From Candidatus Hermodarchaeota archaeon (GTDB lineage: Archaea; Asgardarchaeota; Thorarchaeia; Thorarchaeales; Thorarchaeaceae): a stretch of 64,000 bases of DNA. The stretch is from the NCBI GenBank assembly GCA_048885865.1, contig JBHLLF010000008.1, positions 38,926 through 102,925 on the forward strand, in the 5' to 3' direction. Numbering within the stretch: the first letter of the stretch is position 1; each line of letters begins with the position of its first letter. Made by a program: the position numbers and the translations under genes. Under the pieces are notes generated by a model. The model saw only the letters and a program-made list of their open reading frames with translations. It ran no database searches and was not told where the DNA came from. Positions 3,001 to 49,844 of this stretch are shown one piece after another.

Positions 3001-6000
3001 GCCATTTCTCCATATGAAGTGGGACTGGGTGTTGCGAAATCGAATGACGTTTCTCTACTAGCTACTGTGATAAAGATGGTCCTTGCCGTAATATTAGCGT
3101 AGAATGGTGAGCCTGTCCAAGTAATGCTGATGGTGAACTGTTTGCTTCCAAGAGACGCTCCTAGAACACTAGTGTTGAAGGACACATGGAACTCCCTAGT
3201 TGTGGAATTATAGCTTATTGAATAGTCTGGCAGGTTGACTACAACAGTCATCCTTGCATCATTAGGAATTGTGACAGGAATTACATTTGACACATCATCA
3301 TACGAGAATGAGAAGGTGGCATTAATGCCATAGGATGTGCTGTCAGGCGGAGTCACAGATACTACAGTGTTCCTCGGAATCACTCGCACTGAAATTGTAT
3401 CAGTTCGGTTGTCATAGAATGGAGAAGCAGATGCAGACCAGTTCACTTGCACAACCATGGTAAATACGCCTGGCTTTGCGAATATGGTTGTGTTGAACTC
3501 CAAGGTGTAATGCCCAGGCATGCCCTCTAAGATGGATACCAATGATGTATCAATGGATTCACCCACGAACTCAATGAAGATGAATACATCACCAGTTGCG
3601 TTTGATATCCCTACCCCGCTATAGAGCTCACCATAGAAATACGTATAGCTCATATTCTCCAAATATGGAGTTGGACCGGGAGAGTCCTCGAGACTCAGTT
3701 CCGATTCTTCACCAATGATATTGACTGATGTTCTAATCATTCCATTGTAGAACTGCTGAGTAGGTCCAGTCCAATTGACATAGACTGTGAAATTGTATAA
3801 TCCACTCTCTCCAAGTACTAAAGCTGGGAATCTAATGATATAGTAGCCATTACCCGAAGCTGTATCATTTTCAAGGGTCGAGTCGATCCATCCAGCTACT
3901 CCATAGACAGAAACATTGACGTATTGCGAAGCAACTCCAACATCGTTGTCCAAGTCACCATAGTACAGAGAAACATTGACCATGCCAACATAGGTCGTGG
4001 GCTCAACTGCACTGCCGAGTCTAACCTCTGTGTAGTGAGTCCTGAGAGTCAAGCTCAAATTGAAGTAGCCAAATTGGTAGTTTGAACCCTTTGATACGTT
4101 GAATAAAATGAAATAGCTACCCAACGAATCTGTCTGGAGGCTTGGCAGCTCCACTCTGTATTGCGATCCTGTCCAAATCACAGTTAATGCATGGGTCCAG
4201 TTGTGGTCTATTGATGCACCAAGAATAGGCTCATCGTGAATTATGTCCCAGTAGTCCACGTATAAGACTGCTGTATCACCTAATGGAAGATCTATCGACG
4301 AATCTGAGGAACGAGCGTAGGCATAAGCTATCTGGACTATCACTTCGAATGTTAGTGTCTTCGCTTTATAGCTTAGAGCATCTGCTGTGATATTGACTTC
4401 GTGTGTTCCGAGATTCCATCCTTGCACAATTACCAATACTTCGTAGACACCATTGCCAAGATGTTGCCATGTGATTGATGCGCCTTCTGCTGTTATCGAA
4501 CCTGTGGTGATATTGACATTATTGTCTATGTCTACATAATTCAGGGTGATAGTGACATTTGTGTCGTAGGTTGTTGTCACAGTGGGATAATCATCAGACG
4601 ACAAATAAGTCAAGATTGGCCTATAGGTGAATGTTATCACTGGTGTCTGTGAATCGATATAGTTCTCTGCAGGCAAAAAGTCGACATACACTACGATGGT
4701 ATATTCCCCTTCTAGGAAGTTGCTTTGGTCAATGATAAGCTGGTATCGTCCTTCGCCGAGGAATGCAAAGCTCTCAAATGTGTATTGCCAGCCAGTTTCA
4801 TTCTTTGCAGTGAAGTATGCTTGAGTCAGTCCATTAATGGGATCTCCATCAATTGAAGACCCTGGTTCGCTGATATTCAAATGAGCAAACATGACGAAGT
4901 CATCACCGTTCGGGAATGGCTCAAGATGTTCCCAGCTCACATAGACCTCAAGCTTTCTGATTTCCAGGTCTACGGATATTGTTGCATCTGAATAGTATCG
5001 AGGTGCGGTAGTTGCATAGACAGTGATGTTGATTGTATATACCCCTACTGACCAAGCACTTGTATCCAGCCAGAAGCCATATGGGAAGAATGCTTGCGGT
5101 CCACTTCCCCAATCTAGAGTCACCTGGCTCAGATTGCCAACGCCTATTCCAACTGAACCTCCATCGACATCTAGGAATGAGATGTCGAAATGGGTGCTCG
5201 TTCCCACTGGCGTGGACGGACTATAATCTGCACTTACTGAAGTGCTATGTACTTTCACTATCACCGTAACACTTGCTGTTGCATCCTCATAGTTCGCCTC
5301 CGAGAGAGTCACATCAAATACATAGGTGCCTGGGAGATACGAACTTGTGTCAATTGTGAGAGCATAATCCCCTCCACCAATATCTGCTGTTTGAAGAGCA
5401 ACAGGGGGATTGATGCTAGCTGTACCTCCATCTATTCCAATTCCTGAGTGGTCTATATCATACCAGTGTATCGTGACAGTGGCTTGTTCTCCCCATGGGA
5501 CTTCAACTGGATCAGAGCTAAGTGCATACGCATCTGTAGAAACTTGTCTATAGTCGAATTGCACGTCGATTGAGCTACTCAACAGATATGAATCCGATGG
5601 GGTTGCTGTGAATCTAAATGCATGTGTGCCAGTTGACAGTGCCGAGCTGTCAATAGTCAAGAGATATGTACCGTTGCCATAATCTACGGGCGCGCCTATG
5701 ATGGTCCCATTGCTAGCGAATCCCGCATTTGCAAGCGGCTGGCTGTTGAATGAGTCTCTTAAGGTGATTTTTACTGTGAAGTCATCACCATATGGAGCAG
5801 CTGATGGCGGTTCATATGTGAGATATGTCTGATGCGATAAATCCAGAAAGAAGACATTGAATGCATCACCATAGAACTGGTGAGAAGACGTAAGTTCAAT
5901 ACGCCAACGTTGAGCAGTACCCAGGTCTGTCGTATTTAGGACTCTTCCGTAGCTACCATCGCCGTAATCATTGAGTTGAATCTGAGTAGGAGCCCCACTG

Positions 6001-9000
6001 ACAGTCCAGTTCATGGTCATTGTGGCACCGCTGATTGGTAGAGAGGTTAGTGTATCGGAAAGCTCGAATTCAACATACAAGCCTTCACCGATGAGCTTGG
6101 CTGAGATACCATCCGATACTGCATCACCAGGCGCCGTTAGGCTCATAGAAGCTCCTCGTTTTACAATAAAGTTCCTACTGAATATCCCCACACTTTGATC
6201 AACATTGGCTCCATCATCGTAATACCGAGCAGTGGCTTGCCAGACTCCTGCTTGGGCTGAAGAATCAAGTGTGATTGCCGCGGATTCTGAATATCCTGGA
6301 GACTGCTCTATACTAATTGAGAAGAAGCTGCTTGGATCATTTTGGTTCTTAAATTGTGTTTCAATCCATCCAGCAGGACGTGCAACATCTGAGATACGAA
6401 CCTCGTCGATTTGTCCCTCATATTCGGCACTCCAGACAACATCCTTTGGCTGATCTCCATGACCAATCCAGAAGCCTTGCTCAGCTGTGGAGGGTAATAT
6501 TGCATCAGTCTTCTGGAGAACATTCGGATCCTGCACTCCGTCAACATAGATTCTCATCAAGCTGCCATCGTACGTGGCCACGATGTGATGCCAAGATCCT
6601 CCCATAACATCATTCGCTCCCACTAACTGGTGGGTCTCTCCTTGCACATTGAAGACAGGCTTGAGAGTCGATACGCCTCCCTCATTAATGAAGAGGCTAT
6701 AACCATTATACCACCCCTTGTGATTCATTATTCCATAGATGTGGGTGTTAGGTGTGATATCATGTTGGACCCACGCCTCCAGAGTTAGTTGATACCCGTC
6801 AATATTCCAAAGCGGGCTATCACCGCAGTCAATAAGGTCATAGTTTCCATCAAGATTATTGAAATCTTGGCCAAAGCCAATCTTGCCGGAAACTTGGGTT
6901 GGCACATAGGTGGCTTGGCCTTCTCCACCCTGGCCATGATGTTTGTATTGACTGCTGTCTGTATATTCATCAAGTGCTCCAGTTCCACTCTCTGCAAGGT
7001 GCCAGACGCCTAGATAGCCAGAATCCCATACCGGTCCTGAATCGTAGACTATTGGTGCTATGGGATTGCCGTAATACATGCTAATTGCGGTATCACTTGA
7101 ACCAGATAGCAATGGGACCTTAACCCATGCTGCGAGATGTGCATGTGTCGAGTTGAAAGTCTGGTCGAAGAGTTCAATCTCATGTGCAAGTGTTTCTTCT
7201 CCAATTGCGAAGGCTATATCTCTACCATCTGCACGAACATCTGTGCGTAGGTCAGCGTCATATATGTCAACAAGTACCGGGAAGTTGACAAGATCTGTAG
7301 CGACATTTTCATGGCTGATAGTAAGATATTTCCTGTGGGAGTAGGGCAGAGCGAATTTTTGGCCTTGAAATGTTGCTGCGCCTGAATACCAGGTTGAGCC
7401 GTATGGATCAGTCAAATCAAGTGATATGCCTGAGCTCATGGTTCCAGAACTCCATATCCGGAACTGGATTTCTTCTCCTATCAAGAAAGTGCCTGATGGA
7501 GTATAAGGTCCTCCTGACAGACCCATTTGTGTGTCAAAAACATGATTCCTGTCTTGGAATCGAATCCGCCACATACCATATTCATCAATCGCTGTTGAAG
7601 CAACGATGAGTTTCCCGTCGAAGCATGTCCAGTCAGTTGCGAATGATTTCTCTACCCCTGAAGGACTCATGACAGAAAATGGATACCATTCGCCTTCTGG
7701 ATAAGACAGCTCAAATGAAATTGATTCTATCTCAGGAGGAGGAGAAACCAGTACATTTGCTGTCCAGACGGCCAAGCTGCCATTTACTATTGAAAACGAT
7801 GTTCCTGGAATATAGTCATCTGTGTAGCTAAACCCTGAAGTGTGGGTTCCAAGCGAAGAACTTAATCCAATTGTAATGGCAACATCCGAGCTCGTGCTAA
7901 ATTTGTATCCTGATGCGTCCAGCAAGCTTGGTTCGCTTGGCTCTTCTGGAATGGCAATTTGCTCTTCCGCTCCAACAGAGTAGAAGCTAGCCGGGTCATT
8001 CTGATTTGCGTATTCTGTTGCAATCCACTCAGGAGAAAGGACGGCACCGAGAATTCTAAACTCTGAAATCGCACCAGGACCCCACATATTTCCGGCGCTG
8101 AAATCGGACAGAATTGCTAGCTGGTCCCATGGCAGATGTGGATTTGCATTATCTGCGCTATTGTCTGATGCATCCAATGAGCCATTTATGTAGTGATATG
8201 CCATTACAGCAGCCGTCGACCTTACAAATGAGAATTGAAACCATGAGTCTGCAGCCCAGGAATTCTTAGTCCCAGTACAACTATCATCATTATCTGATGT
8301 AACTTCTATGTGTGTTACAACGATTCCACTACTCGCGAATCTCATTAACGGATAATCATTTGTGAGACTGTTGCCCCGGAAAAAGTGCATCTCACTTCCT
8401 GGCGGAAACGTATTGTCGAACTTGAACCATGACTGAAATGTAGTGTCAAGCAACGGACCTGAGATACTGCTAACAGCAAACCTATCATTAATCCCGTCAA
8501 CTGAAATCGCTGTTCCTAATCTACCATCATAAACCCGTGAATCAGAATCAAATCCCAGTGCAGTCAAGTGATACCCATTGGCTGTGCTATCCAAGATGCT
8601 AGTGGATGATGGGTCCTGATTAAAGTGCCAAACTGCAACATAGTTGCTATTCCATACCTCAGATGGCCTCTCTTGATTGTTTATGCTTGGATTTCCATAG
8701 TACATGGTAATTGTAGTGTCCACTGAGGAGGATAGGTCTATCTTAACCCAAGCGACAAGATGTGCATGTGTCGAGTTGTAGGTCTGGTCGAACAGCTCAA
8801 TTTCATGTGGTAGAGATGAGGTCCCAATTTTGAAGATGATGTCGTCTCCGTCCGGCTGAACATCACTTCTGAGATCAGAGTCGAAGATGTCAATGAGCAA
8901 CGGAAAGTCTGTCAGGTCTGAACCAACCTTGGTGTGGTCTATTGTAATGTTCTTCATGTAATTATACTCAGGTGCCACACCCAAGAATTCAGCAGCGCTA

Positions 9001-12000
9001 ATAGAATAGAAGCTAGACGGATCATTCTGATTATTGAACTCGGTGAGTATCCAATCTGAAGAACGAGCAATTTTGGAAATTCGGACTTCATCCAACATTC
9101 CATCGAACATATCATCTGTGGTTGGACTGCTTTCGCCATTCAGCCTGAAATTAGCGCTGTTCTGAAGAGAACCTACACTGCCTATAGTTCCCCAAATGGA
9201 ACTCTTGTCATCTATCCCATCAACATAGATTGTCGAAATAGTATCGCTATCCTGATCAAACACATAGACAACATGGCGCCAGCCCGTGTTGAGAACAGGA
9301 GAGCTTGCATCAACGCCAAATTGGGGTCCATCAGACGATATGCTGTAACCAGGGTATCCATTGTTATCGTCCGATACAAACGCAGCATAGCCTGGACTTG
9401 AAGAAGCTAGGCCATTCCGCTTGCTTACCAAGAAAGGTTCATAGTAGTAGAAGTAGTCCAGATCCACCCAGAATTCGATAGTGAAATCATCCGTATTTCC
9501 GAAGTCGAGATGTCCATCTGCGGGATCTCCCATATTTACAGTGCCTAGCCCATCACGGTCGAAATAGTAAGCATTGCCTATGCGTCCCGATACTCCTTGA
9601 GTGAGCAGTCCTGATGGAGTTCCATGTGTTTGATATGGTGTAGAATCTTGAGCATTGCCACTTGTTTCTGAGAGATGCCATACGCCCATATAGCTACTAT
9701 CCCAGACGCCATCAGAATCCTCTTGATTTGTTGCTTCAGGATTTCCGTAGTACATAGTAACAATCGTATCAGATGATGATGAGAGGTCGGTTTTGACCCA
9801 GGCAACCAGGTGAGCGTGAGTAGAGTTGTAATCTCGGTCGAAGAGCTCTATCTCATGTGATAGTGATACATCACCTGTCTTGAAGATAATATCATCACCA
9901 TCAACTTGTGTTTCAATCTTGAGATCAGTGTCATAAATGTCGATTAGTAATGGGAATCCAACAAGATCTGAACTGACCTTTGTATTGTCAATCGTGATAT
10001 TCTTTCTGTAGTTGAAACCTTTGGGCTGGGGAGTTAGTTCATATCCCACCGTATAGAAGCTTGTGGGATCGTTCTGGTTTCTGAATTCCGCCAGAATCCA
10101 CTCGGCTGATCTGTCAATATTTGATACACGGACTTCATCGATGCGGCCATCATAATATTGATCTTCGAGACCTATGTTTAGGGGGGATCCAGAAACAGCG
10201 AGAGTGCCAGAATTAGGGATAGATGCTATCTCAGTACCATCCACATAAATGAATGTGGTTGTACCATCGTAGACTCCTACTACATGGTACCACCTGTTGA
10301 TGTCATTATTGGTCCGGGCAATCCAGGTCTGTCCAGTTCCGGTTGTTGTCACACTAAATGTGATTCTCCTAGTTGCATCCCAATCTTGAAAGATTTCGTA
10401 TGAGCCATACTTAACAACAATCCCTGAGCCCCATCCAGGCCCTATGTCCTCATTGAGGTATGCCCACGCTTCAAGTGTCACAACATCACCAGCAATATTC
10501 AGACTTGGCCCATTACCACAATTGATTGAGTCATCTACCCCATCGAATAGAATTGCATTGCCTATTGGTCCGTTTATTCCTAATGTGGGGGCGCCTGCAT
10601 CAGTTCCATGATTGTTATTGGAAGTTGAGTCCTTGAATGCTCCGCTCCCTCCACTGGTTTCTCCCAGATGCCAGACTCCCATGTAATTGTCGTTCCACAC
10701 ACTATTCGGGTTCTCTTGATTTGATGCTTGGGGACTGCCATAGTACATTGTAACTGCTGAATCAACAGTGGATGAGAGATCAGTCTTGACCCAGGCGACC
10801 AGATGAGCATGAGTTAGGTTGTAATCTTGGTCAAAGAGTTCTATCTCATGCGGAACCAAAGCATCATTCATCTTGAAGATGATGTCATCTCCATCTGCTT
10901 GAACGTCTGTCTTGAGATCAGTGTCATAGATGTCGATAAGCATTGGAAAATCTGAAAGGTCGGCATCAATCTGCGTATGGTCTACTACAATGTCCTTCCT
11001 GAATGCGAACTCAACTGGTTGGGTTATTATTTCAGCTCCAACCGAATAGAAGCTGGATGGATTGAGTTGATTGTTGTACTCAGTGATAACCCAGCCATCT
11101 GAACGTGCGGTGTTGGATACACGAACCTCATCGATTAATCCATCAACTGGATTGGGAGAAGATAATCCGCGTGAGATTGTGAAGTTGTCTGTGCTAGACA
11201 CACTTCCTATGCCACTAATATCTACATCTCCACTATAACTCCCATCTTTAAACAGATGCATTGTATTACTGCTTGTATCAACACAAGCAACAAGATGCAT
11301 CCATTCACCGAATGTGACGCTGTAACTGCCAGTAGATTCGTAACTAGTTCCATCACCTATCTGGAAGTAAATGTTTTGTCCGAGTGTGTTGGTTTCAAAT
11401 CTATAGCCGCTTTTAAGACCACTTGGATGTCCTTTGTTAAGAGGAGCTTGCCAAGAACCTGTGCTCGCATCAATCTTCAGCCATATACTAATGGTGAAAC
11501 TGTTTAGGCCAAAATCAAGATGACCATCTGCGGGGTCTTCCATGTTTATATAGCCATCAATCCCGTCGAAATCGCTGGCACTTCCTATTCTTCCTAAAAC
11601 TCCTAAAGTAACTCCACCAAACGGAGTCCCATCTTGACCATATGGTGTTGAGTCTTGAACACTACCGCTAGCTTCACCCAAATGCCAGACTCCAACGTAG
11701 CCATTGCTCCATACAGCTGAAGGGTTCTCTTGTTTCGATGCCTCTGGATTTCCGTAATGCATCGTGATTGTTGTATCAATAGTGGATGAGAGATCAGTCT
11801 TGACCCAGGCAACTAGGTGGGCATGAGTGGAGTTGTACTCCTGATCGAATATTTCTATTTCATGAACCAAAGGTGTCGTGCCAATCTTGAAGATGATGTC
11901 ATCGCCATCCGATTGTACATCAGTTCTTAAATCAGCGTCAAATACGTCAATGAGGAGTGGAAAATCTGTCAAGTCTGCAGAGACCTTAGTATGATCGACC

Positions 12001-15000
12001 ACTATATCCTTTTCATATGCGAACTCCACAGGTTGCGTGAATGTTTCTGAGCCTACGGAATAGAAACTGGCTGGGTCGTATTGATTATTAAATTCGGTCG
12101 CAATCCACTCTGGCGAGTATGCCATATTGGCAACCCGTACTTCATCTGTGTTTGCAGTGGACCAATAGCCAATAGTGCCACCAACTTCACTACGGAATGC
12201 GCCTATATAGAAGGACTCTGACTCGTCAAGACTACCATAGCCTGTAATATCCGTTGGAGAATTGGGATCTTCTACTCCATCAATGTATAATCGAAGATAA
12301 TTCCCATCCCTTACCAAAGATACATGGTGCCACAAATTGTCACCATATGTAGAAGTCGAGGTGACGCTCTTCGCTACGGTATTGTCGTCAATTTGCGCCA
12401 TCAACATTCCTGGACCTGATTCTATGCTAAGTCGATATCTCTTGGCGTTAAGTACAGCACCTTTTCCAGCAAGAACTCCCATGTCTACACCATCATACTT
12501 GAACCACAGGGACAGCGAGAAATCATTGGAGCCTACATTCAGCGAACTATCACTTCCACAATCGATGTGATCTTGATTATTATCGAAATCGATGCTTCCA
12601 TCGATTTGTCCATCTACTTGGTCATCGGACTGCAGATTATAGCCTGTTCCATGATTCGAATTTGATGTTGAATCATGAATCGCACCTGTGGGGTCTTCTT
12701 TTAGATGCCAGACGCCTGCATAATTGGAATCCCAAACGCCTGCTGCATTCTCTTGATTTACAGCCGTCGGATTGCCATAATACATCGTAATTACGGTGTC
12801 AGTTGATGATAGAAGGTTTGTCTTCACCCAAGCCACTAGATGTGCATGACTGGTATTATAGGACTGTTCAAAGACCTCAATCTCGTGAGGAATGATGAAG
12901 CCATCTTTAGCAAAAACGATGTCATCGCCATCAGCTTGGACATCTGTCTTCAGATCTGTGTCATAGATGTTGATTAACACTGGGAACTCTGTCAAGTCTG
13001 CATCGACCTTCGTGTGATCAATGACTATGTCCTTTTTGTAAGTAAGCTCAATTTGCTGGATATATTGTTCAGCTCCTATAGAGTAGAAACCAGCAGGATC
13101 ATTCTGGTTCTCAAACTCAGTGAGAATCCATCCAGGAGTGCGAGCGATTTCAGCGACACGAACCTCATCGATGATTCCATCCGTAGTTCCTGTCCATTCT
13201 TGCCTACCTATAATCAGGGGCTCTGTGTTAGTATCGATGTTTCCAGACATTGCAGAGTAGTCCTGTTCATAGCCATCAATGTACAGCCTACGATTTACGC
13301 CATCATATGTATATACGACATAGTGCCACCCTGCTGTCCCAATATTGTAGCCTGTATTCCAATTCCAGTCTGGAGGATTCCCTGGAACATCTGTATATAC
13401 CCAGATAGCTGAGGTTTCGAATGTAAGGCCGTAATAACCGCTGCCAGAGTCGTCCGACTTGATTGCAATCCCGCCACTAGGCGAGATGTCCGCTGAGTAG
13501 ATCCAACCTCCGACAGTTATCTTGTCCGTCGTTATATCAAGACTCACACTGTTTTGCATCTCAATGAAATCGTCTGCGCCATCGAATTGCTGTCCGCCCG
13601 CAATCCTTCCTGCTATCAGATTCGGGACATATCCCGCCGTTCCACCCCCTCCTCTCCCATGATTCCCATAGGCGCTACTATCTTTGTACTCACCTGATGT
13701 TCCATCGCCAATCTCCTTCAGATGCCACACTCCCCTAAAGTTGCTAGTCCAGACACCATCTGGGTCCTGCTGATTTGTTGCCGCAGGATTGCCATAGTAC
13801 ATTACAATCGTTGTATCAATTGTGGAGGAAAGATCGGTTTTCACCCAGGCAACTAAATGGGCATGAGTTGTGTTGTAGTTTTGATCAAAAAGCTCTATCT
13901 CATGCGACAGGAGTTTTGTGCCCATTTTGAAGATGATGTCGTCTCCATCGGGTTGAGCATCAGTCTTGAGATCCATGTCATAGATATTAACCAATAATGG
14001 AAAATCCATAAGGTCTGCATTGACTTTGTTATGGTCAACCACTATGTCTTTCTTATATTGACCTTCAATAGGCTGTGAGAATCCTTCTACTCCGACTGCG
14101 TAGAAGCCTGATGGATCATATTGGTTGCTGTATTCAGTGAGAATCCATTCTGATGAGCGAGCTTCACTTATCACGCGAACTTCATCAATCAAGCCCTCTA
14201 CCGGATATGAAAAAGGCGATAATTGCAGGCTCTGAGAGCTACTTACATCTCCCAATGAACTGATGCTTTGTGGTGATCCGACTGAGGCACCATTTGCATA
14301 GAATCGGAGAAAGCCTCCTGGAACATCCACAACTGCTACTATGTATATCCATTGGCCAAATGTCACAGAGGTTGAATCAGAAATGACCTGTACTGTTCCA
14401 TCTGCAACCTCAGCTTTTAGATCTGATCCTGCAGTGTTTGTTTCAAACTCGTATCCCGCATCGGTAGTCATAGTCCCTCCCTTGAATAGCGGTAGCTGAT
14501 AATTCCCCGTGCTTTGATCAACACGAACCCAAAGACTATAGGAAAAGGTGTTCAAGCCGAAATCAAGATGACTGTCAGAGGGATTTCCAAAGTTGACATT
14601 CCCATTTACACCATTGAATTCATAGCAATTCCCAGCAATGCCGGTTTGGCTATAAATCACGCTTGCACTTACTGAACCTGACAAGCCAAATTGAGTAGAG
14701 TCTATAGCATCTCCATTGGATTCACCAAGATGCCAGACGCCTGCGTAGTCAGCGCGCCATACTTCTGCAGGGTTCTCCTGATTTCCTATCGATGGATTAC
14801 CATAGTGCATTGAGATAATAGTATCAGATGTGGAAGAGAGGTCTGTTTTGACCCAAGCTATGAGATGGGCGTGGGTTGAGTTGTGCTGTTGATTGAATAG
14901 CTCTATCTCATGCGGAAGATAGCCGCTGCTAGAAGTGAATATAATGTCATCCCCATCTGCTTGAACATCTGTTCGCAAGTCAGTGTCATAAATATCAATC

Positions 15001-17750
15001 AACATAGGAAAGTCCGTAAGGTCTCCCGCGACTTTGCTGTGGTCAATTGTGATGTCCTTCTTGTAGAGGAAATTGACTCCCTCATCGCCAACTGAAATGA
15101 ATAGCTCAGGATTTCTCTGATTGATGTATTGTGTCCTTATCCAAGCATCAGACCTGGCAATGCTTGATATACGAACCTCGTCGACAATTCCATCAAAGTA
15201 AGATGTTGCACCAGCACTATCGGATCTTCGGCCTATTCTTACAGGCCGGTTAGGGTCATTCACTGATGCAGGGACTCCACTTGTCACCTCTCCAACAAGC
15301 TTACCATTCAGATAGAACCTCGTATATTCGGATGGGCTAAACACGCCTACAGCATGATACCACTGGCCAGTATCAACGCGTTCGTATCCAACAAGATCCG
15401 TAGCTACTCCATCAGGACTCCACCGAAACATGACCCATCCCGCAGGACTGATGCTAGGATCGTTATCAAAACTGATATCCCATCCTCGATAGTTGAATTC
15501 TCCTGATTTAACCACTAGATAGTCATTGTCAACATAATCAGCATAAAACCAAGCCTCCACCGTAAAAGCACCATTCAACTGTAGCTCAGTTGGATTGCCA
15601 AAATCTAGATAGTCATTCGACCCCTCAAGATCGATTGCCCCTCCAATGATTCCATCAACGAGGTCACTTGATGTCATGCTCCCATATGAGGTGCCACTAC
15701 TCTCGGGTGAAGTCACATCCAATATCTGTGGTTGATGAGGCATATAGTCAGCATAGGTTGAGTCCCACTGAGGTTGGGCTGGATTCTCACTCAGATGCCA
15801 CACTGCGGAATAGTCTGAGTCCCAAACATCTACAGTTATTTCTTGGCCTCCAAGGTCATCGTCTCCGTAGACCATCACTATTGTGGTATCCTGAGTAGAA
15901 GAAACATAAGGCACATTCACCCAAGCCGAGAGATGAGCATGTGTTCCATTTCCCAGCTTGTCGAAGACATCTATTTCGTGGGGGATTACCTGGCCATCAT
16001 ATAGAAACGCGATATCATCACCATCAGGCTGAACATCTAGATGCAGATCAGCATCCCAAATGTCTACCAGAACTGGAAAGTTCTGTAGGTCTGCGGCAAC
16101 CTTGCGATGATCGATGACTATGTTCTTGTTATATCTAAAGCTTGGAATGACGTCACTTGGGTCAGGCGCAGTAAAATCAACAAACAGTCTGGCAAGATCA
16201 GCCTGCGGATACCCAGCTGAGCCCTTTATGTTATTGTACTCATAATCCAGAGTGGAGTATGCGTAATCAATCATTATACAGATGTAGTTGCCACTCTGCC
16301 ACCCGGGTCTGGATACCACCTCTTGGATTAGAGCTGACAAGTCGGGCGTGCTATATCTTCCGTTGGTAAGCCACGTTGTGGGGCGCCAATAGACACTAGT
16401 GTTGACCCAATCATATCTGTCTTCCAAAAGAGGATATCCTGTTGTGAATGCAGATACATCATCCTCATCTGCAACATAGATTCGCATTCCAGGATGCCCA
16501 GTTGAGTCGAAGGCTGCTTCCACCTGCAGGACAGCAGATGCAATTGTGGATCCCTGTGGCACATGTAATGGAAACTGAAGTCCGACATTATAGGGATCTG
16601 CGGTAGTCCAGTCGCCCGGGGTGAGCAAATCACAACCCACGTCAATGTAGCCGCCATCATCGTATCCATTCAAATCCACGCCTCCTGCACCCCAATTTGA
16701 CGAGTCAGCGCTATAGCAGTCTCTGTTGCTCCCGTCGGGAACATACGGTGAAACACGTCCTTCAGTTGATCCCGTCACTCGGGCTCCATTTGCTAGTAGG
16801 TCAATCTCTTCTGGATAAGGTCGTACAAGAAGCCTCAACTCAAGCTCGTCAATGTACATTTCATGGGTCCCGCTGGCGGGAGGATTGCCACTCAAGTCTG
16901 TTCCAACACCAATGTCAAAGAGCAATGCATCCTTCGTTTCCAGTGACTGCAAATAGGAAGCGGGAACAGTGGCTTTGGCTTGCAGCCATGTGTCAGTGGG
17001 TGTGCCAACTTCATATACATGGTGTTTAGTAACATAGCCTTCCACCCTAGTAAAGACATGAACCATGTCATCCATACTAGAAAGACTGGAAACATAATAC
17101 CGGAAAGTGATTTCAGCAGAGTAGACTTCTCTCCAAGGCGCAGGGATCTGTTGACTGATGTAGATTCCCATGGTTGGGTCGAAGATAGCGCCAGTATTAT
17201 AGTTTGCATCAAACCTCCAACCCATGGAAGCATCATATCCTTCTCCAGACCTGCCGTTGAGCTCAAAATAGCCGTGTTGAGGATGTGGAGTCCCGCTAGG
17301 AGGTGCATCGTTCTTTACTATGGTCCAGCCATTCGGAACATAGAAGGGATCTCCGTTGTATTCTGGATAGCCATCAATGGGAATCCATAACTCTTCGTGA
17401 TTGGCGTCAAGATTTGGATTGACTAGAACATCTTCGACCCACATCGAGAGGTGCTCAAGATCTGCTTCCAGTTGCTCCGAGCTCCATCCCAAGGGTGGGT
17501 CGACACCAATAATCCAAGGATGGTCTGCGTCAATCACAGAGGTCCCGCTTGAAACAGTCATTCCTTGATAGTCGACAGGCCTGGGTGCACCTGTCCCTGA
17601 TGAAAGATCATGCCAATCGGAAGGTGCTGACTCAGAGTCACGATTCCCAGTAGCATCCAAATATGGAACGACATGGTCGAACTCTGGACCTCCGATTGTG
17701 GGGAGGAGAAAGATGATAAACAGCATCATCGCTGCGGCCGGCTTTCGCAT
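1..17750 (-). CDS. Giant-1: giant cell-surface (glyco)protein, >=5916 aa, 3' end beyond the window; signal peptide, DNRLRE-like domain, 8+1 DUF2341-LamG cassettes, Ig-like stalk
   Basis: Manual translation from ATG 17750 gives MRKPAAAMMLFIIFLLPTIGG...HLSMWVEDVLVNPNLD...VPNGWT...HPQHGYFEL, which aligns with giant-2 (DLSMWVDNALINPKLD...VPDGWT...HPLQGTFEL). The same frame at the left edge reads EFLNGSSIGG, matching VNGSSIGGPGYFY in giant-3. The track has no terminated minus-strand ORF in this frame, consistent with no internal stop. GGGAG lies just upstream of the ATG. Confidence 0.93.
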   Translation of the reverse strand, partial: MRKPAAAMMLFIIFLLPTIGGPEFDHVVPYLDATGNRDSESAPSDWHDLSSGTGAPRPVDYQGMTVSSGTSVIDADHPWIIGVDPPLGWSSEQLEADLEHLSMWVEDVLVNPNLDANHEELWIPIDGYPEYNGDPFYVPNGWTIVKNDAPPSGTPHPQHGYFELNGRSGEGYDASMGWRFDANYNTGAIFDPTMGIYISQQIPAPWREVYSAEITFRYYVSSLSSMDDMVHVFTRVEGYVTKHHVYEVGTPTDTWLQAKATVPASYLQSLETKDALLFDIGVGTDLSGNPPASGTHEMYIDELELRLLVRPYPEEIDLLANGARVTGSTEGRVSPYVPDGSNRDCYSADSSNWGAGGVDLNGYDDGGYIDVGCDLLTPGDWTTADPYNVGLQFPLHVPQGSTIASAVLQVEAAFDSTGHPGMRIYVADEDDVSAFTTGYPLLEDRYDWVNTSVYWRPTTWLTNGRYSTPDLSALIQEVVSRPGWQSGNYICIMIDYAYSTLDYEYNNIKGSAGYPQADLARLFVDFTAPDPSDVIPSFRYNKNIVIDHRKVAADLQNFPVLVDIWDADLHLDVQPDGDDIAFLYDGQVIPHEIDVFDKLGNGTHAHLSAWVNVPYVSSTQDTTIVMVYGDDDLGGQEITVDVWDSDYSAVWHLSENPAQPQWDSTYADYMPHQPQILDVTSPESSGTSYGSMTSSDLVDGIIGGAIDLEGSNDYLDFGNPTELQLNGAFTVEAWFYADYVDNDYLVVKSGEFNYRGWDISFDNDPSISPAGWVMFRWSPDGVATDLVGYERVDTGQWYHAVGVFSPSEYTRFYLNGKLVGEVTSGVPASVNDPNRPVRIGRRSDSAGATSYFDGIVDEVRISSIARSDAWIRTQYINQRNPELFISVGDEGVNFLYKKDITIDHSKVAGDLTDFPMLIDIYDTDLRTDVQADGDDIIFTSSSGYLPHEIELFNQQHNSTHAHLIAWVKTDLSSTSDTIISMHYGNPSIGNQENPAEVWRADYAGVWHLGESNGDAIDSTQFGLSGSVSASVIYSQTGIAGNCYEFNGVNGNVNFGNPSDSHLDFGLNTFSYSLWVRVDQSTGNYQLPLFKGGTMTTDAGYEFETNTAGSDLKAEVADGTVQVISDSTSVTFGQWIYIVAVVDVPGGFLRFYANGASVGSPQSISSLGDVSSSQSLQLSPFSYPVEGLIDEVRVISEARSSEWILTEYSNQYDPSGFYAVGVEGFSQPIEGQYKKDIVVDHNKVNADLMDFPLLVNIYDMDLKTDAQPDGDDIIFKMGTKLLSHEIELFDQNYNTTHAHLVAWVKTDLSSTIDTTIVMYYGNPAATNQQDPDGVWTSNFRGVWHLKEIGDGTSGEYKDSSAYGNHGRGGGGTAGYVPNLIAGRIAGGQQFDGADDFIEMQNSVSLDITTDKITVGGWIYSADISPSGGIAIKSDDSGSGYYGLTFETSAIWVYTDVPGNPPDWNWNTGYNIGTAGWHYVVYTYDGVNRRLYIDGYEQDYSAMSGNIDTNTEPLIIGRQEWTGTTDGIIDEVRVAEIARTPGWILTEFENQNDPAGFYSIGAEQYIQQIELTYKKDIVIDHTKVDADLTEFPVLINIYDTDLKTDVQADGDDIVFAKDGFIIPHEIEVFEQSYNTSHAHLVAWVKTNLLSSTDTVITMYYGNPTAVNQENAAGVWDSNYAGVWHLKEDPTGAIHDSTSNSNHGTGYNLQSDDQVDGQIDGSIDFDNNQDHIDCGSDSSLNVGSNDFSLSLWFKYDGVDMGVLAGKGAVLNAKRYRLSIESGPGMLMAQIDDNTVAKSVTSTSTYGDNLWHHVSLVRDGNYLRLYIDGVEDPNSPTDITGYGSLDESESFYIGAFRSEVGGTIGYWSTANTDEVRVANMAYSPEWIATEFNNQYDPASFYSVGSETFTQPVEFAYEKDIVVDHTKVSADLTDFPLLIDVFDADLRTDVQSDGDDIIFKIGTTPLVHEIEIFDQEYNSTHAHLVAWVKTDLSSTIDTTITMHYGNPEASKQENPSAVWSNGYVGVWHLGEASGSVQDSTPYGQDGTPFGGVTLGVLGRIGSASDFDGIDGYINMEDPADGHLDFGLNSFTISIWLKIDASTGSWQAPLNKGHPSGLKSGYRFETNTLGQNIYFQIGDGTSYESTGSYSVTFGEWMHLVACVDTSSNTMHLFKDGSYSGDVDISGIGSVSSTDNFTISRGLSSPNPVDGLIDEVRVSNTARSDGWVITEYNNQLNPSSFYSVGAEIITQPVEFAFRKDIVVDHTQIDADLSDFPMLIDIYDTDLKTDVQADGDDIIFKMNDALVPHEIELFDQDYNLTHAHLVAWVKTDLSSTVDSAVTMYYGSPQASNQENPNSVWNDNYMGVWHLGETSGGSGAFKDSTSNNNHGTDAGAPTLGINGPIGNAILFDGVDDSINCGNGPSLNIAGDVVTLEAWAYLNEDIGPGWGSGIVVKYGSYEIFQDWDATRRITFSVTTTGTGQTWIARTNNDINRWYHVVGVYDGTTTFIYVDGTEIASIPNSGTLAVSGSPLNIGLEDQYYDGRIDEVRVSNIDRSAEWILAEFRNQNDPTSFYTVGYELTPQPKGFNYRKNITIDNTKVSSDLVGFPLLIDIYDTDLKIETQVDGDDIIFKTGDVSLSHEIELFDRDYNSTHAHLVAWVKTDLSSSSDTIVTMYYGNPEATNQEDSDGVWDSSYMGVWHLSETSGNAQDSTPYQTHGTPSGLLTQGVSGRIGNAYYFDRDGLGTVNMGDPADGHLDFGNTDDFTIEFWVDLDYFYYYEPFLVSKRNGLASSSPGYAAFVSDDNNGYPGYSISSDGPQFGVDASSPVLNTGWRHVVYVFDQDSDTISTIYVDGIDDKSSIWGTIGSVGSLQNSANFRLNGESSPTTDDMFDGMLDEVRISKIARSSDWILTEFNNQNDPSSFYSISAAEFLGVAPEYNYMKNITIDHTKVGSDLTDFPLLIDIFDSDLRSDVQPDGDDIIFKIGTSSLPHEIELFDQTYNSTHAHLVAWVKIDLSSSVDTTITMYYGNPSINNQERPSEVWNSNYVAVWHFNQDPSSTSILDSTANGYHLTALGFDSDSRVYDGRLGTAISVDGINDRFAVSSISGPLLDTTFQSWFKFDNTFPPGSEMHFFRGNSLTNDYPLMRFASSGIVVTHIEVTSDNDDSCTGTKNSWAADSWFQFSFVRSTAAVMAYHYINGSLDASDNSADNANPHLPWDQLAILSDFSAGNMWGPGAISEFRILGAVLSPEWIATEYANQNDPASFYSVGAEEQIAIPEEPSEPSLLDASGYKFSTSSDVAITIGLSSSLGTHTSGFSYTDDYIPGTSFSIVNGSLAVWTANVLVSPPPEIESISFELSYPEGEWYPFSVMSPSGVEKSFATDWTCFDGKLIVASTAIDEYGMWRIRFQDRNHVFDTQMGLSGGPYTPSGTFLIGEEIQFRIWSSGTMSSGISLDLTDPYGSTWYSGAATFQGQKFALPYSHRKYLTISHENVATDLVNFPVLVDIYDADLRTDVRADGRDIAFAIGEETLAHEIELFDQTFNSTHAHLAAWVKVPLLSGSSDTAISMYYGNPIAPIVYDSGPVWDSGYLGVWHLAESGTGALDEYTDSSQYKHHGQGGEGQATYVPTQVSGKIGFGQDFNNLDGNYDLIDCGDSPLWNIDGYQLTLEAWVQHDITPNTHIYGIMNHKGWYNGYSLFINEGGVSTLKPVFNVQGETHQLVGANDVMGGSWHHIVATYDGSLMRIYVDGVQDPNVLQKTDAILPSTAEQGFWIGHGDQPKDVVWSAEYEGQIDEVRISDVARPAGWIETQFKNQNDPSSFFSISIEQSPGYSESAAITLDSSAQAGVWQATARYYDDGANVDQSVGIFSRNFIVKRGASMSLTAPGDAVSDGISAKLIGEGLYVEFELSDTLTSLPISGATMTMNWTVSGAPTQIQLNDYGDGSYGRVLNTTDLGTAQRWRIELTSSHQFYGDAFNVFFLDLSHQTYLTYEPPSAAPYGDDFTVKITLRDSFNSQPLANAGFASNGTIIGAPVDYGNGTYLLTIDSSALSTGTHAFRFTATPSDSYLLSSSIDVQFDYRQVSTDAYALSSDPVEVPWGEQATVTIHWYDIDHSGIGIDGGTASINPPVALQTADIGGGDYALTIDTSSYLPGTYVFDVTLSEANYEDATASVTVIVKVHSTSVSADYSPSTPVGTSTHFDISFLDVDGGSVGIGVGNLSQVTLDWGSGPQAFFPYGFWLDTSAWSVGVYTINITVYATTAPRYYSDATISVDLEIRKLEVYVSWEHLEPFPNGDDFVMFAHLNISEPGSSIDGDPINGLTQAYFTAKNETGWQYTFESFAFLGEGRYQLIIDQSNFLEGEYTIVVYVDFLPAENYIDSQTPVITFTYRPILTYLSSDDYPTVTTTYDTNVTITLNYVDIDNNVNITTGSITAEGASITWQHLGNGVYEVLVIVQGWNLGTHEVNITADALSYKAKTLTFEVIVQIAYAYARSSDSSIDLPLGDTAVLYVDYWDIIHDEPILGASIDHNWTHALTVIWTGSQYRVELPSLQTDSLGSYFILFNVSKGSNYQFGYFNLSLTLRTHYTEVRLGSAVEPTTYVGMVNVSLYYGDLDNDVGVASQYVNVSVYGVAGWIDSTLENDTASGNGYYIIRFPALVLGESGLYNFTVYVNWTGPTQQFYNGMIRTSVNIIGEESELSLEDSPGPTPYLENMSYTYFYGELYSGVGISNATGDVFIFIEFVGESIDTSLVSILEGMPGHYTLEFNTTIFAKPGVFTMVVQVNWSASASPFYDNRTDTISVRVIPRNTVVSVTPPDSTSYGINATFSFSYDDVSNVIPVTIPNDARMTVVVNLPDYSISYNSTTREFHVSFNTSVLGASLGSKQFTISITWTGSPFYANITARTIFITVASRETSFDFATPSPTSYGEMATFTVTYLDVAGAIPSPIDDGTITLYNDSQPIPVSFYSYIPLGSGKYTIELNTSYFSRPDSYSLEIQITTTQFYYPDVTGSRTLNVRYRITTLAAESAGIVSYNSSIPLVLHYSDLFSLSPISNISLLTSIEILNGSSWIFTSNWRGVSQDYLVTVQTFNQILDVDTDYVLWIRFTYADASPFYLAAETFVSFRLRERTTYLDVTESPLPTPYLDFVNFTVAYRDLESSTAIGGANIVLSIDAINLMEGTEYILQTSGDGIYQISINATAIGIPGTTKSLVVSAEWPSGAPYYTDTTISLTVSVVVRPASVRIISSPTQVRFLDNITFTFSYNDDSTDDFITLTKNMVSIYSGGSLLQSSDFAMSFAGNGYRIGINSAILSPYLVTNWNVTVFVDWSSTDPPYYSDDAASVGVTVTNRVGSISLGNAPTIPIGDNMTLTFSYQDQDNGLGIGDAIIVFDCLNPSGLVENTDFWIVRGFGPEFGEYTIIVDTNKLGGVGLYTFSLLLQWNQSIAPYYRNASEIFLIGSVRLIQSQLYYYEPSPTTVPIRDNVSVVLTFTDTDHLLAIAGAESDISVTYKSDGSVPSIWCITVIAPGIYELTVNCTDAGSTGTNALVIQINLSNYQFAEVQVPIQIRARQGELTKIESPDAYFGEQTYAIVELVDIDASSAPIHDAMLNLIWPETSSYVYIGSGMYNITLDTTTLGADLYTLVVSAQKADYFIPEISISIKVLNIPTGIILPQTVPDVHWGESVSIWALFNDTRSGTLIPGAAVNYQFGILSGSLTEGTPGNYSFTVDTGNLPLATTYLVSITARLDNYDTVSGQVTVNILRLNLELTIVDGLNSQVLYKGEPINITVFVRDAYNDVPLTGASVSAKWIFDMNGVSLAPVPGMNGYYTGLIATVAASTKTYSIVVSAEKTNYLTMTSSAEVNIKQILTKVNLDPLTETYSSQVFDWTDTIRIGVFVLAPTLNDTGLSNCTVTWSLSGTFLTGEFLNGSSIGG
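6310..7345 (-). repeat. Ninth (fixed, post-spacer) DUF2341+LamG cassette of giant-1
   Basis: LPYSHRKYLTISHENVATDLVNFPVL...NHKGWYNGY...IGHGD...GQIDEVRIS; matches the last cassette of giant-2 (NHKGWYNGY...IGHGD...GQIDEVRVS). Confidence 0.85.
7975..16140 (-). repeat. Eight tandem ~1.02-kb (~340 aa) DUF2341+LamG cassettes in giant-1
   Basis: Unit starts (K-[DN]-I-x-[IV]-D-x-x-[KQ]-[VI]-x-x-D-L-x-x-F-P) at about 16140, 15075, 14062, 13045, 12023, 11010, 10017 and 8967. Units carry DGDDI.F, HEI..F, HAHL.AWV, YG[NSD], VWH and mostly a LamG-type DE.R[VI] motif. Confidence 0.88.
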
Positions 17751-17799
17751 GTTTACAACTCCCACTAAGCAATGCAGGGATGGGACCAACAGAACTGAC

Positions 17800-17897: not shown

Positions 17898-18521
17898 CTA
17901 GAGGTATTCGATTCTCCCCATGTCAGTCAAGGCGTTAAGTGCTGGGGGGTTGAGAATCTCTATATTTGGCTCCCTCCAAGATACGAGTTTTGTTTTCTCT
18001 GGAACGGAAAGCTTGTGCAATGACGCACATGAAAAAAGAGCACTTAGGTCAAGTCGCATGATGTCATTTCCAAGTAGGTTCAGCTCCTCAAGTCTTGGAC
18101 ACTTAGAAAGCGGGGTGAGATCTAATGCTTTCATTTGATTATCCTGTAGATACAGAGTTGTGAGGTTCTGACATTGAGCCAGTGGTTCCAAGTCCAATCT
18201 GAACAGTGCATTGTTGCTGAGGTCCAAATGCTTCATATCGCAATACTTCAGTGAATCAATGTCAATCACTCGTAAATGATTTGAATTGAGTCTAAGGCTG
18301 TGCAGAGATTTGCAGAATGCCAACGCCACCAAATCCAGGGTCATTAGGCTATTATTGGCTAGATTCAATTCCTCCAAACCGGTCATATTGTCCAAGGGGC
18401 CAAGGTCGATTGCCATAATTGACTCGTTTGAGAAGTCCAAGGATAAACTGTCCGGCACCACTGGTATCTTCCTCGATGTTCCATCTGCCAATGTCACCTT
18501 AAAGTGTATCAAGACCTTCAC
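17898..18521 (-). CDS. Cytosolic leucine-rich repeat protein (about six 24-aa LRRs)
   Basis: Repeats of LxxLxLxxNxLxxLDLxPLxxCxx, e.g. LTTLYLQDNQMKALDLTPLSKCPR; no signal peptide or TM segment. Confidence 0.92.
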   Translation of the reverse strand: MKVLIHFKVTLADGTSRKIPVVPDSLSLDFSNESIMAIDLGPLDNMTGLEELNLANNSLMTLDLVALAFCKSLHSLRLNSNHLRVIDIDSLKYCDMKHLDLSNNALFRLDLEPLAQCQNLTTLYLQDNQMKALDLTPLSKCPRLEELNLLGNDIMRLDLSALFSCASLHKLSVPEKTKLVSWREPNIEILNPPALNALTDMGRIEYL

Positions 18522-18639
18522 TCACTCTACGATTCATCCAATCTTAATCCTGGGTGAATAATCGCCTATTCATTTCAATATATGGCGCTTCTCCAGATTG
18601 AGTTTGGCTAGTCAGAATTTCCCATTTTGGCACATATAG

Positions 18640-18705: not shown

Positions 18706-18710
18706 ATTGT

Positions 18711-20030
18711 GTGGAGTGTGACGTCATCATGAAGGTCCCTGGAACTACCATGGACATAAGTCTCAAGACCAACAAAATATTCGCTGTTGATCAAGGAGTC
18801 ATGAAGCGAATCAAATACGCTGGACGGACCTTCATGGAAGTACTCGAAGAGCTTCAAAGATTCGCATATCTAAGGGGATACAACGCTCCAACTACTATAT
18901 TGAAATTCATTCTCAAGCGAATCGGCCTTCCTGATGTTGAGGTGTTCCCGTCTGAAGATGAACTGACGAAAGATGATATCACTGAACTCTCGAAAGCACT
19001 CAATATTGTTGACAGCCTCAAGGATGAATTCCTATCTGCGACGCCAGAGCCCATAGTGCCTGAGGATCTAAAGAATTACACTGTCATAAAACCGAAGCAA
19101 TCAGACGACTTCACCCTAGAGGGCATAGCTCCTGATGACACTATGCCTATAGATGTGACTCCTGATGCTCCCATTGAAGCAGAGGCTGCTGCAGAAACTC
19201 CCGCGTTTGATAGATCCTCTATCTGGGATGATGTGCCTCAGAGTGAGGAAGCTGTGAAGCTAATCTACAATTTCCACTGGGAGAACCTTCCAGTAAATAC
19301 CCCCACACCCAGAACCAAATCCTCTGAAGAACAAGAAACCAAGAAACCGAAGTTCATCTGGGATGATGAGGGTGAGTTGGAATCTTTCGAGGATGTCAGA
19401 CCAACTGAGGAGCCAGCTCCCGAACTCCTCGGAGACTCCCATGAACTAAAATCTCTGTTCCTTGGAGAAGCACAAGTAGGTGTGAAAAGCATACTCTTTG
19501 AATGCAACCTCAAAGAAGCAGAAGATCTATCCTATGTCTATCGGGATGTTGTTCAACACGATGAAAACCTTGTCGGGGTAAATGTCTGGACCTTTGAAGG
19601 CTCGCAGGCAGCAAGAATCCCGCGCCAGGAGTTCTTTACTGGTACGGGAATTGCAGTCCTTGTGTATTCAGTAGCTGACAGATGGAGCTTCGATAGTCTT
19701 GATTTCTGGATTAAAGAACTAACCAGTGTCTTCTTGGTTCCACCTCCAATGATTATCGTAGGCAACAAGACAGACCTTAGAGACCATCCCGTATACGGTG
19801 AGGACGATGAGTTTGAACCTCCAGTTACTACAGCAGAAGGCGAAGAGTTCTGCAAGAAAATGGCAAATGAACTAGGTGAAAACGGCGAAGCTCATCCAAT
19901 AGTGTTCATGGAAACTTCCAGCATTACAGGTGCAGGTATCTCCGACCTACTAAGCACGATGATTGATCTTTGGCTGACAAGTGAGAGGCCAAGCATGCCA
20001 GCTGTGGAATCGCATGTCATTAAGCGTTGA
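18711..20030 (+). CDS. Unknown N-terminal domain + acidic linker + degenerate Rab/Ras-like GTPase domain (probable pseudoGTPase); likely start ATG 18729
   Basis: C-terminal ~190 aa: LKSLFLGEAQVGVKSIL (G1-like), VNVWTFEG (G3-like), VLVYSVADRWSFDSL..WIKEL, IIVGNKTD (G4), FMETSS.TG.GI (G5). Confidence 0.88.
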   Translation: MECDVIMKVPGTTMDISLKTNKIFAVDQGVMKRIKYAGRTFMEVLEELQRFAYLRGYNAPTTILKFILKRIGLPDVEVFPSEDELTKDDITELSKALNIVDSLKDEFLSATPEPIVPEDLKNYTVIKPKQSDDFTLEGIAPDDTMPIDVTPDAPIEAEAAAETPAFDRSSIWDDVPQSEEAVKLIYNFHWENLPVNTPTPRTKSSEEQETKKPKFIWDDEGELESFEDVRPTEEPAPELLGDSHELKSLFLGEAQVGVKSILFECNLKEAEDLSYVYRDVVQHDENLVGVNVWTFEGSQAARIPRQEFFTGTGIAVLVYSVADRWSFDSLDFWIKELTSVFLVPPPMIIVGNKTDLRDHPVYGEDDEFEPPVTTAEGEEFCKKMANELGENGEAHPIVFMETSSITGAGISDLLSTMIDLWLTSERPSMPAVESHVIKR

Positions 20031-49349: not shown

Positions 49350-49844
49350 GTGAAAGCACTGACACGGAAATTGCAGGTGTTACATGAAGTGCGACTTCCG
49401 GGGACCAATATCGAGGTGCTAGTTAGTTCCAGTATCATAGAGATAAGAGATGAAGATTTCCTACAGAGTATAGAGTATAGTGGCAAGAAGTATGAGGCTG
49501 TCCTCGATGAGATACAACGCATAATGCACAAGCGGGGATGGGAAATTACCAGGCGGGTCATCAAATACGTGTTGGATAGACTTGGCTTGCCAGAGGTTGA
49601 GTATTTTCCATCGGGTGAGCTGAGTGCCGATGAAGGCGGGAATTTGAGCGAGATGATTGACAGCATAAAGGAACTCACTGGTGTGAAGGCTGAAGTATCT
49701 GAGGAGCCCCCAAGCGTGTCTGCCGATGATCTGAACTTCAATTTTCATTCGGAGAACATTCCGAAGGAGGCTCCTGAGCGGAATGGCAAGTCCAAAGAGT
49801 CAGATTTCGATTGGGAAGAAGCGCCTCCCGTTGGCTCATCCTAG
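49350..49844 (+). CDS. Hypothetical protein, stand-alone paralog of the pseudoGTPase N-terminal region; likely start GTG 49389
   Basis: VRLPGT...IEYSGKKYEAVLDEIQR...IKYVLDRLGLPEVEYFPS aligns with MKVPGT...IKYAGRTFMEVLEELQR...LKFILKRIGLPDVEVFPS. Confidence 0.88.
   Translation: MKALTRKLQVLHEVRLPGTNIEVLVSSSIIEIRDEDFLQSIEYSGKKYEAVLDEIQRIMHKRGWEITRRVIKYVLDRLGLPEVEYFPSGELSADEGGNLSEMIDSIKELTGVKAEVSEEPPSVSADDLNFNFHSENIPKEAPERNGKSKESDFDWEEAPPVGSS

Follow-up and report, generated by a model that had tools for sequence, protein, structure and literature searches.

We analysed a 64,000-nt stretch of a Thorarchaeota genome (assembly GCA_048885865.1, contig JBHLLF010000008.1, positions 38,926 to 102,925 of the forward strand; hereafter the window), which is deposited as Candidatus Hermodarchaeota archaeon and falls within the Thorarchaeaceae in the GTDB. 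Our interest was in one gene of this stretch, encoding a 433-aa protein built of an N-terminal domain, an acidic linker and a C-terminal Ras-superfamily domain; judging by its sequence motifs, this last domain is very likely a pseudoGTPase. The open frame is intact from 18711 to 20030 on the plus strand and is opened by a GTG at 18711, while the start favored by the family consensus in a 40-sequence alignment (M[KQ][IV]PGT) is the ATG at 18729. An original prediction, made from the letters of the stretch, had placed an intact Rab-like pseudoGTPase reading frame at 19443-19990. These coordinates cover the C-terminal domain, which translation of 19443-20027 also yields; the gene itself is larger, and the N-terminal domain, the linker and a neighboring gene for a leucine-rich repeat (LRR) protein had been missed.

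Several searches place the C-terminal portion of the protein (residues ~244-423) in the Ras superfamily. The Pfam Ras model (PF00071) matched with an E-value of 4e-13 and 49.7 bits, compared to a cut-off of 21.6, and the Roc model with an E-value of 3e-7. The Ras match begins at profile position 36 and covers the profile from there onwards only, such that the G1 region is not matched by the Pfam model. By phmmer, the best sequence relatives in the PDB were plant Rac/ROP, Rab9 and Ypt1 (E ~1e-9), and the Thorarchaeota Rab of entry 7EZB was matched with an E-value of 3e-7. Foldseek returned RhoA, Rac and Rab chains, including Thor-Rab 7ezb, at E ~1e-9 and TMt values of 0.6-0.76.

The individual G motifs were assigned by alignment with canonical Rab-like paralogues from the same genome, a Thorarchaeota metagenome-assembled genome (MAG) of 3.58 Mb and 87% completeness. 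In this alignment, canonical GDGAVGKTS pairs with GEAQVGVKS (G1), TIGVDF with LSYVYR (switch I), WDLAGQP with WTFEGSQ (G3), NKIDLR with NKTDLR (G4) and ETSALTGEG with ETSSITGAG (G5). Lys16 of the P-loop is replaced by Val and Ser/Thr17 by Lys, with position 18 staying Ser; the switch I region (residues 261-285) contains no Thr at all and falls 9 residues short of the length usual in the family; and both Asp57 and the catalytic Gln of G3 are substituted (Table 1), Gly60 being retained in the window's subclade only. The residues for phosphate, Mg2+ and catalysis are therefore gone, that is, the P-loop Lys, Ser/Thr17, the switch-I Thr and the G3 Asp along with the Gln, and G4 and G5 are intact. 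The basic readings of G1, switch I, G3, G4 and G5 had already been made in the original prediction, and the translation together with the paralogue alignment bears them out. A competent GTPase carries GxxxxGK[ST], a switch-I Thr with DxxG(Q) in G3, and G4 and G5; of these, the protein retains the last two. Its GTPase fold with disrupted G motifs fits the structural side of the pseudoGTPase definition of Stiegler and Boggon, in which an experimentally demonstrated loss of hydrolysis and/or nucleotide binding is the second element and also decides the class. An alternative register, in which GVGVKS would be a P-loop carrying one inserted residue and a shifted K-S, was rejected: canonical Rab-like paralogues typically have Ser18 as well (GKTS), and the two align gap-free.

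Table 1. Positions of the pseudoGTPase gene, its parts and the neighboring genes (window coordinates)
Feature	Position	Strand	Basis or remark
Whole gene, 433 aa	18729..20030	+	Family-consensus ATG; encodes N-domain, linker and predicted pseudoGTPase domain
Ras-superfamily (Rab/Rho-like) domain, very likely a pseudoGTPase	19443..19982	+	Pfam, PDB phmmer, Foldseek
Degenerate G1/P-loop GEAQVGVKS	19464..19490	+	Residues 252-260 of P0001
Degenerate G3 WTFEGSQ	19587..19607	+	Asp57 = Thr, Gln61 = Ser
Intact G4 NKTD	19764..19775	+	NKTD in 112/120 orthologues, NKxD in 118/120
Intact G5 ETSS	19911..19922	+	Equals ETSA in canonical paralogues
Orphan N-terminal domain, ~106 aa	18729..19046	+	AlphaFold2 pLDDT 86.5; no convincing fold match
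Linear motif block SIWDxVPxSEE...LIYxFHxENxP...TPTPRT, acidic disordered linker	19218..19316	+	Family alignment
Second Trp-acidic motif KFIWDDE	19350..19370	+	W217, D218 invariant (family alignment)
C-terminal motif ERPSMPAxE	19983..20009	+	E425-P430 nearly invariant; stands where Rab carries its hypervariable tail and prenyl-Cys
207-aa LRR protein, candidate partner	17898..18521	-	Divergent; Pfam LRR_8 E 4e-22
Giant LamG_3/DUF2341 surface-protein gene beside LRR gene	3..17789	-	Runs off the window; Pfam labels
Short paralogue (P0158) with N-domain, FHxEN and DFDWEE motifs, no G domain	49389..49844	+	Translation; N-domain profile E 1.6e-19

Such a loss is rare within the genome itself. Among ~40 Ras-family matches, nearly all carry GxxxxGK[ST] and DxxGQ, and GxxxxGK[ST] is missing in only three: the gene described here, a paralogue from its sister clade (clade B, see below) and one other open reading frame (ORF). 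A further match on C101 is cut by the contig start and was left out of the motif scoring. A Ras-like match in a 377-aa ORF of the same genome, outside the window (C22:20977-21312) has a fully degenerate G1 (LVLGVNSALQTGF) and no NKxD, and may be an unrelated second pseudoGTPase.

We next asked how widely the substitutions are shared. A search of 5.8 billion proteins yielded 120 full-length homologues at 44-100% identity and ~98% coverage, almost all of them from Thorarchaeota MAGs. Position 16 is Val in 94 and Ile in 26 of these sequences and Lys in none, position 18 is Ser throughout, and position 57 is Thr, Ser or Pro, never Asp, in all 119 orthologues in which it could be scored. The P-loop glycines (GExxVG) do not vary. 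Position 17, by contrast with this uniformity, switches state between subclades: 73 sequences have Asn, 37 have Lys, 9 have Ser and one has Gly. Of the features that the original prediction proposed to check in orthologues, GV[KR] and the loss of the G3 Asp, the losses of Lys16 and Asp57 are shared by the family and the Lys at position 17 is not.

Two further lines of evidence speak to the state of the gene. Against six orthologues, with synonymous divergence (dS) of up to 1.7, the ratio of nonsynonymous to synonymous substitution rates (dN/dS) was 0.05-0.08 for the G domain, 0.05-0.24 for the N-terminal domain and 0.14-0.22 for the linker. In addition, the G1 codons are unchanged in contigs from four metagenome runs of two independent studies. 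Given the same substitutions in 120 orthologues, a dN/dS below 0.1 and identical G1 codons in independent samples, the family is under strong purifying selection, and decay or sequencing error is excluded. Neither canonical orthologues nor a sequence error, two findings that would have spoken against the original prediction, came to light, and its proposal of a pseudoGTPase with intact guanine motifs is upheld on motif grounds by the conservation of NKTD and the low dN/dS. Overall, the conservation pattern shows that NKTD, ETS[ST] and the glycine-rich P-loop backbone are under strong constraint.

Searching with the N-terminal domain revealed how the degeneration may have come about. This search uncovered a sister clade, B (P0131-P0156), and three intermediate sequences (I). 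In a maximum-likelihood tree of G domains, A (the family of the window gene), I and B form a single clade (SH-aLRT, the Shimodaira-Hasegawa-like approximate likelihood-ratio test, 100) on a long stem beside the canonical Rab-like paralogues; clade A is nested inside this joint clade with a support of 99. A clade-B paralogue is present in the same genome (C48:1-1488, cut by the contig start); it is 36% identical in the G domain and reads GEAGVGKKS at G1 and WSFDEA at G3. Among 21 clade-B representatives, 20 keep Lys16 and none has DxxG. Their position 17 is S, H, R, K, A, Q or L, being basic (H/R/K) in 11, and five representatives keep Ser17 and with it a canonical GxxxxGKS. P0123, the nearest outgroup of clade A, carries Met at position 16. 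That clade B keeps the P-loop Lys while already lacking DxxG indicates a stepwise degeneration: G3 and the strict requirement for Ser17 went first, at the root of the superfamily, and the P-loop Lys followed on the branch to clade A. NKxD is conserved across the A/B split at ~36% identity and, along with G5, ranks among the best-conserved residues in both clades. This survival of NKxD through both loss steps is our main reason to think that the guanine pocket still matters.

The N-terminal domain has few counterparts elsewhere. AlphaFold2 models the N-terminal domain as a three-stranded beta-meander with three helices at a predicted local distance difference test (pLDDT) score of 86.5, and its invariant residues are R50, F51, Y53, R55, G56, K65, F66, K69 and R70. 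A profile of this domain gave only E > 0.5 against PDB sequences; Foldseek against the PDB returned nothing at E <= 0.001; a wide VIA-align search peaked at Z 6.4, a value inside the noise range given for the method, and the match was a de novo designed protein; a shape search of the ESM Atlas gave a TM of 0.57 to a DUF5996 cluster, the meaning of which is unclear; and the Atlas feature search and NCBIfam yielded no usable match and nothing, respectively. Among 1.84 billion representatives, the profile matches 36 clusters only. Most full-length matches share the whole architecture, and shorter ones are N-domain-only forms or fragments. In a sample of 301 genomes across the phylum, one family accounts for nearly all occurrences (45 of its 76 genomes); a single further genome with the domain belongs to another family of that order, and the 28 other families yielded none.

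Within the linker, residues P176, E180, F188, H189 and P200 of the first motif block are invariant in the family alignment; the flanks of this block have low pLDDT, with a short helix modeled at 179-188. The KFIWDDE motif that follows has a counterpart, DFDWEE, in the short paralogue P0158. Compared to canonical paralogues, the G domain contains two insertions: one precedes beta-6, and the other follows G4, where Rho proteins carry their insert helix between G4 and alpha-4. The insertion after G4 is an acidic segment of 17 aa (LRDHPVYGEDDEFEPPV, residues 356-372, 19776-19826) modeled as a low-pLDDT loop. The phmmer alignment shows a segment of equal length in plant ROP/Rac, and canonical Thor paralogues have shorter forms of it. 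The protein stops ~15 aa past alpha-5, and Pfam gave no match to a COR domain. Nor is there a C-terminal Cys prenylation motif, as the protein ends in ...ERPSMPAVESHVIKR and its last Cys is C381; the ERPSMPAxE motif found in this place is missing from clade B.

A nearly constant feature of the genomic context is the LRR gene. We compared 27 orthologous loci from species-representative genomes, 19 of which extend at least 900 bp upstream of the pseudoGTPase gene. In 18 of these 19, across 44-96% identity, the LRR gene lies divergently upstream, and this adjacency is kept despite rearranged downstream neighbors; the sole locus without it is a second copy in one genome. On the far side of the LRR gene, a homologue of the N-terminus of the giant gene was found in all 15 of the 18 LRR-bearing loci that reach that far, and the order of giant LamG_3/DUF2341 gene (-), 207-aa protein gene (-) and pseudoGTPase gene (+) recurs in SMTZ1-45 and other contigs. 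No gene for a GTPase-activating protein (GAP)-like or roadblock/longin protein is present in the conserved neighborhood. An expression look-up for 17898-20030 listed no RNA dataset.

Clade B differs in this respect. In two assemblies (including L078:1756-3222), its genes sit divergently beside a gene for a phosphoribosyltransferase of 183-186 aa, with no LRR gene in the neighborhood. Pairing with an LRR gene is therefore a clade-A trait, as are the ERPSMP tail and the FHxEN block. Loci L063-L076, which were tried as a source of clade-B context, proved to hold ordinary small GTPases without the N-terminal domain.

Downstream of the window gene, two giant genes of 3986 and 5492 aa occupy 20080-48515 (-), overlapping at 32037-32040. 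They separate the pseudoGTPase gene from a DUF4332/HhH_5 gene (48655-49227, -) and the adjoining short paralogue. In three loci of close relatives (L038, L040 and L004), the DUF4332 gene and then the short paralogue come directly after the pseudoGTPase gene, and we therefore take the window's cluster to have been expanded by 28 kb of giant surface-protein genes. The short paralogue itself may address the same docking partners, as a decoy or a regulator. In most genera, the cluster adjoins genes of the endosomal sorting complex required for transport (ESCRT), namely EAP30, Vps25-like, Vps4 and Snf7. In the clades at 44-52% identity, 13 loci have this ESCRT cluster at a distance of 2-5 kb downstream; in L001, L002 and L046-L060, the pseudoGTPase gene, often as a tandem pair, is followed after 0.1-2 kb by a MarR-like gene and an aspartyl-tRNA synthetase gene and then by the ESCRT genes. 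The arrangement is absent from the window's clade, and we set it aside as lineage synteny rather than functional evidence. Elsewhere in the window, a 548-aa ORF (52525-54171, +) has weak matches to STAND/NACHT-type ATPases (ATPase_2, nSTAND1, BrxC/D), all below cut-off.

To probe the pairing at the protein level, residues 7-439 (40-row alignment) were co-folded with the LRR protein (19-row alignment). The interface score (ipSAE) was 0.41 compared to 0.00 for the best of three controls, with three runs agreeing in at least 86% of contacts and a partner pLDDT of at least 88. In calibration, 58 of 80 solved complexes passed this mark, as did 2 of 110 mismatched pairs; the passes at scores of 0.60 or below comprised only 7 of the solved complexes and both of the mismatches. 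Taken together with the prior from gene order, the co-fold lends modest support to LRR binding, and we regard it as an even call whether the LRR protein is the direct partner of the pseudoGTPase.

Based on these observations, we consider it probable that the gene encodes a non-switching pseudoGTPase adaptor maintained by selection, with the LRR protein as its likeliest partner. An adaptor is favored over an enzyme by the loss of the residues for Mg2+ and GTP hydrolysis together with the constant LRR pairing beside giant surface-protein genes. The protein has three parts and is confined to one lineage of Thorarchaeia; it would be cytoplasmic and would not run through a GTP/GDP switch cycle. Guanine nucleotide might either be bound weakly without Mg2+, or the pocket might serve as a structural or interaction surface; whether it still takes a guanine compound appears close to evenly balanced, if anything tilting slightly toward no. 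The adaptor would then act constitutively, most likely on the divergent 207-aa LRR protein, with the linker motifs and the ERPSMP tail as candidate docking sites. The module is tied genetically to giant LamG/DUF2341 surface proteins with cytoplasmic tails and would be connected with them in function as well.

Several points weigh against this reading. We infer nucleotide binding and the loss of hydrolysis from the motifs alone, and NKTD and ETS may have been kept for structural reasons, not for a ligand. The model of the G domain is of moderate confidence (pLDDT ~70-86 in blocks, 62 overall). The 19 loci include many from genomes related to one another, meaning that the synteny counts do not represent independent events, and the link to giant surface proteins consists of gene order only. 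Lastly, the co-fold pass is of the weak kind and returned no interface.

Of the alternatives, the strongest is a nucleotide-free pseudoGTPase of the class i type, in which the pocket would be empty, NKTD and ETS would merely stabilize the fold, and the protein would be a pure protein-interaction scaffold. We consider this unlikely, albeit worth keeping in view. Lys16, Ser17, Thr35 and Asp57 are all lost together, and the Asn at position 17 in most orthologues is the same change as in dominant-negative Ras S17N, a variant of low nucleotide affinity. Precedent exists, too, in that class i pseudoGTPases such as AAGAB act as interaction modules (PMC12490416). What counts against an empty pocket is the invariance of GExxVG and the high conservation of NKxD and G5 in both clades.

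A second alternative, put forward in the original prediction, is that the Lys at position 17 (K259) takes the Mg2+ site and neutralizes the phosphates, making the protein an Mg2+-free binder of guanine nucleotides. K259 does stand exactly at the Mg-ligand position, and the basic residues seen there in 11 of 21 clade-B and 37 of 120 clade-A sequences are in line with this idea. However, the other 83 clade-A orthologues have Asn, Ser or Gly instead, and since position 17 changes state between subclades, the shifted Lys is not required for function and cannot be the mechanism of the family. As a general explanation it is distinctly improbable; for the window's own subclade it is possible.

Highly improbable is an active, non-canonical GTPase whose Lys and catalytic residues are supplied in trans by the LRR protein, the N-terminal domain or a dimer mate. 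The retained guanine pocket, the conserved partner gene and the invariant Arg and Lys residues of the N-terminal domain would suit such a scheme, but every Mg ligand is gone, not only the catalytic residues, and the conserved neighborhood offers neither a GAP-like nor a roadblock/longin gene. Moreover, we know of no P-loop NTPase that works without the Walker A Lys. Finally, nothing was found in favor of gene decay or of a mistake in sequencing or assembly, which the intact ORF, the conservation data and the identical G1 codons of independent samples reduce to a negligible prospect.

A more far-reaching version of the adaptor model is that the guanine pocket has come to sense or anchor a guanine compound (GDP, GMP, guanosine or a guanine-based alarmone) independently of Mg and that the protein, with the LRR partner, couples giant adhesin-like surface proteins to the cytoplasm. 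This is improbable in our estimate; if true, the system would be a prokaryotic, non-switching forerunner of eukaryotic Ras-LRR scaffolding.

How does the family relate to known systems? Its nearest neighbors in the tree are canonical paralogues from the same genome (e.g., G000 C11:44485-44994 and C18:61519-62028), with which it has the NKxDLR, ETS.xTG.G and VYSV..R.SFD...W blocks in common. These canonical proteins have ~180-210 aa and carry GxxxVGKT, the switch-I TIG and WDxAGQ, all three of which are missing here. The canonical Thor-Rab of SMTZ1-45 (PDB 7EZB, PMC10933270) has the same fold (Foldseek E 5e-9, TMt 0.69), to which the present protein adds a 240-aa N-terminal extension, two insertions and the ERPSMP tail. 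Clade B is alike in combining an N-terminal domain, a long acidic linker and a Ras-like domain in which G3 DxxG is lost and NKxD kept; it differs in keeping the P-loop Lys, in lacking the ERPSMP tail and in having a phosphoribosyltransferase rather than an LRR neighbor.

A coupling of Ras- or Roc-like domains to an LRR solenoid is known from ROCO proteins (LRR-Roc-COR) and from the SHOC2-MRAS LRR scaffold. The likeness to these, including the Roc match in Pfam, is one of organization and not of membership: here, the LRR is encoded by a separate, divergent gene, the predicted dead G domain stands in a protein that lacks a COR domain. The protein is thus no ROCO protein, having its LRR in trans and no COR, and no Rab either, with no prenyl Cys and G1-G3 degenerate. 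Its switch I and II have diverged too far for the RabF1-F5 motifs to be scored, and what connects it with Rab proteins is its place in the tree next to Thor Rab-like paralogues.

In eukaryotes, CENP-M, the pG1 and pG2 domains of p190RhoGAP and the psGD of AAGAB are pseudoGTPases in the classification of Stiegler and Boggon (2020), as cited in PMC12490416 and PMC10731463. The present family shares with them a GTPase fold with disabled G motifs, which in their case is used for protein interaction. Known class i examples such as AAGAB have lost the guanine-binding geometry too (PMC12490416), whereas here G1-G3 are lost and G4 and G5 are intact. With no detectable specific relationship to the eukaryotic pseudoGTPases, we favor an independent archaeal origin from Rab-like ancestors. 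Literature searches retrieved no paper describing the family. The small GTPases of Asgard archaea are commonly taken to point to membrane and signaling machinery of a eukaryote-like kind. The family indicates that Rab-like GTPases gave rise to pseudoenzymes in these archaea, too, independently of eukaryotes and with a traceable order of losses, G3 first and the P-loop Lys later. Its unusual pattern, with the phosphate/Mg elements gone and the guanine elements intact, makes it a natural test of what a G domain is capable of without the P-loop Lys, and the LRR protein and the pseudoGTPase constitute a defined candidate complex, linked to giant surface proteins, which could be reconstituted in vitro without a cultured Thorarchaeon. 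PseudoGTPases as such are a known kind; what distinguishes this family is its archaeal Rab-like origin, the retention of G4 and G5, the orphan N-terminal domain and the dedicated LRR neighbor.

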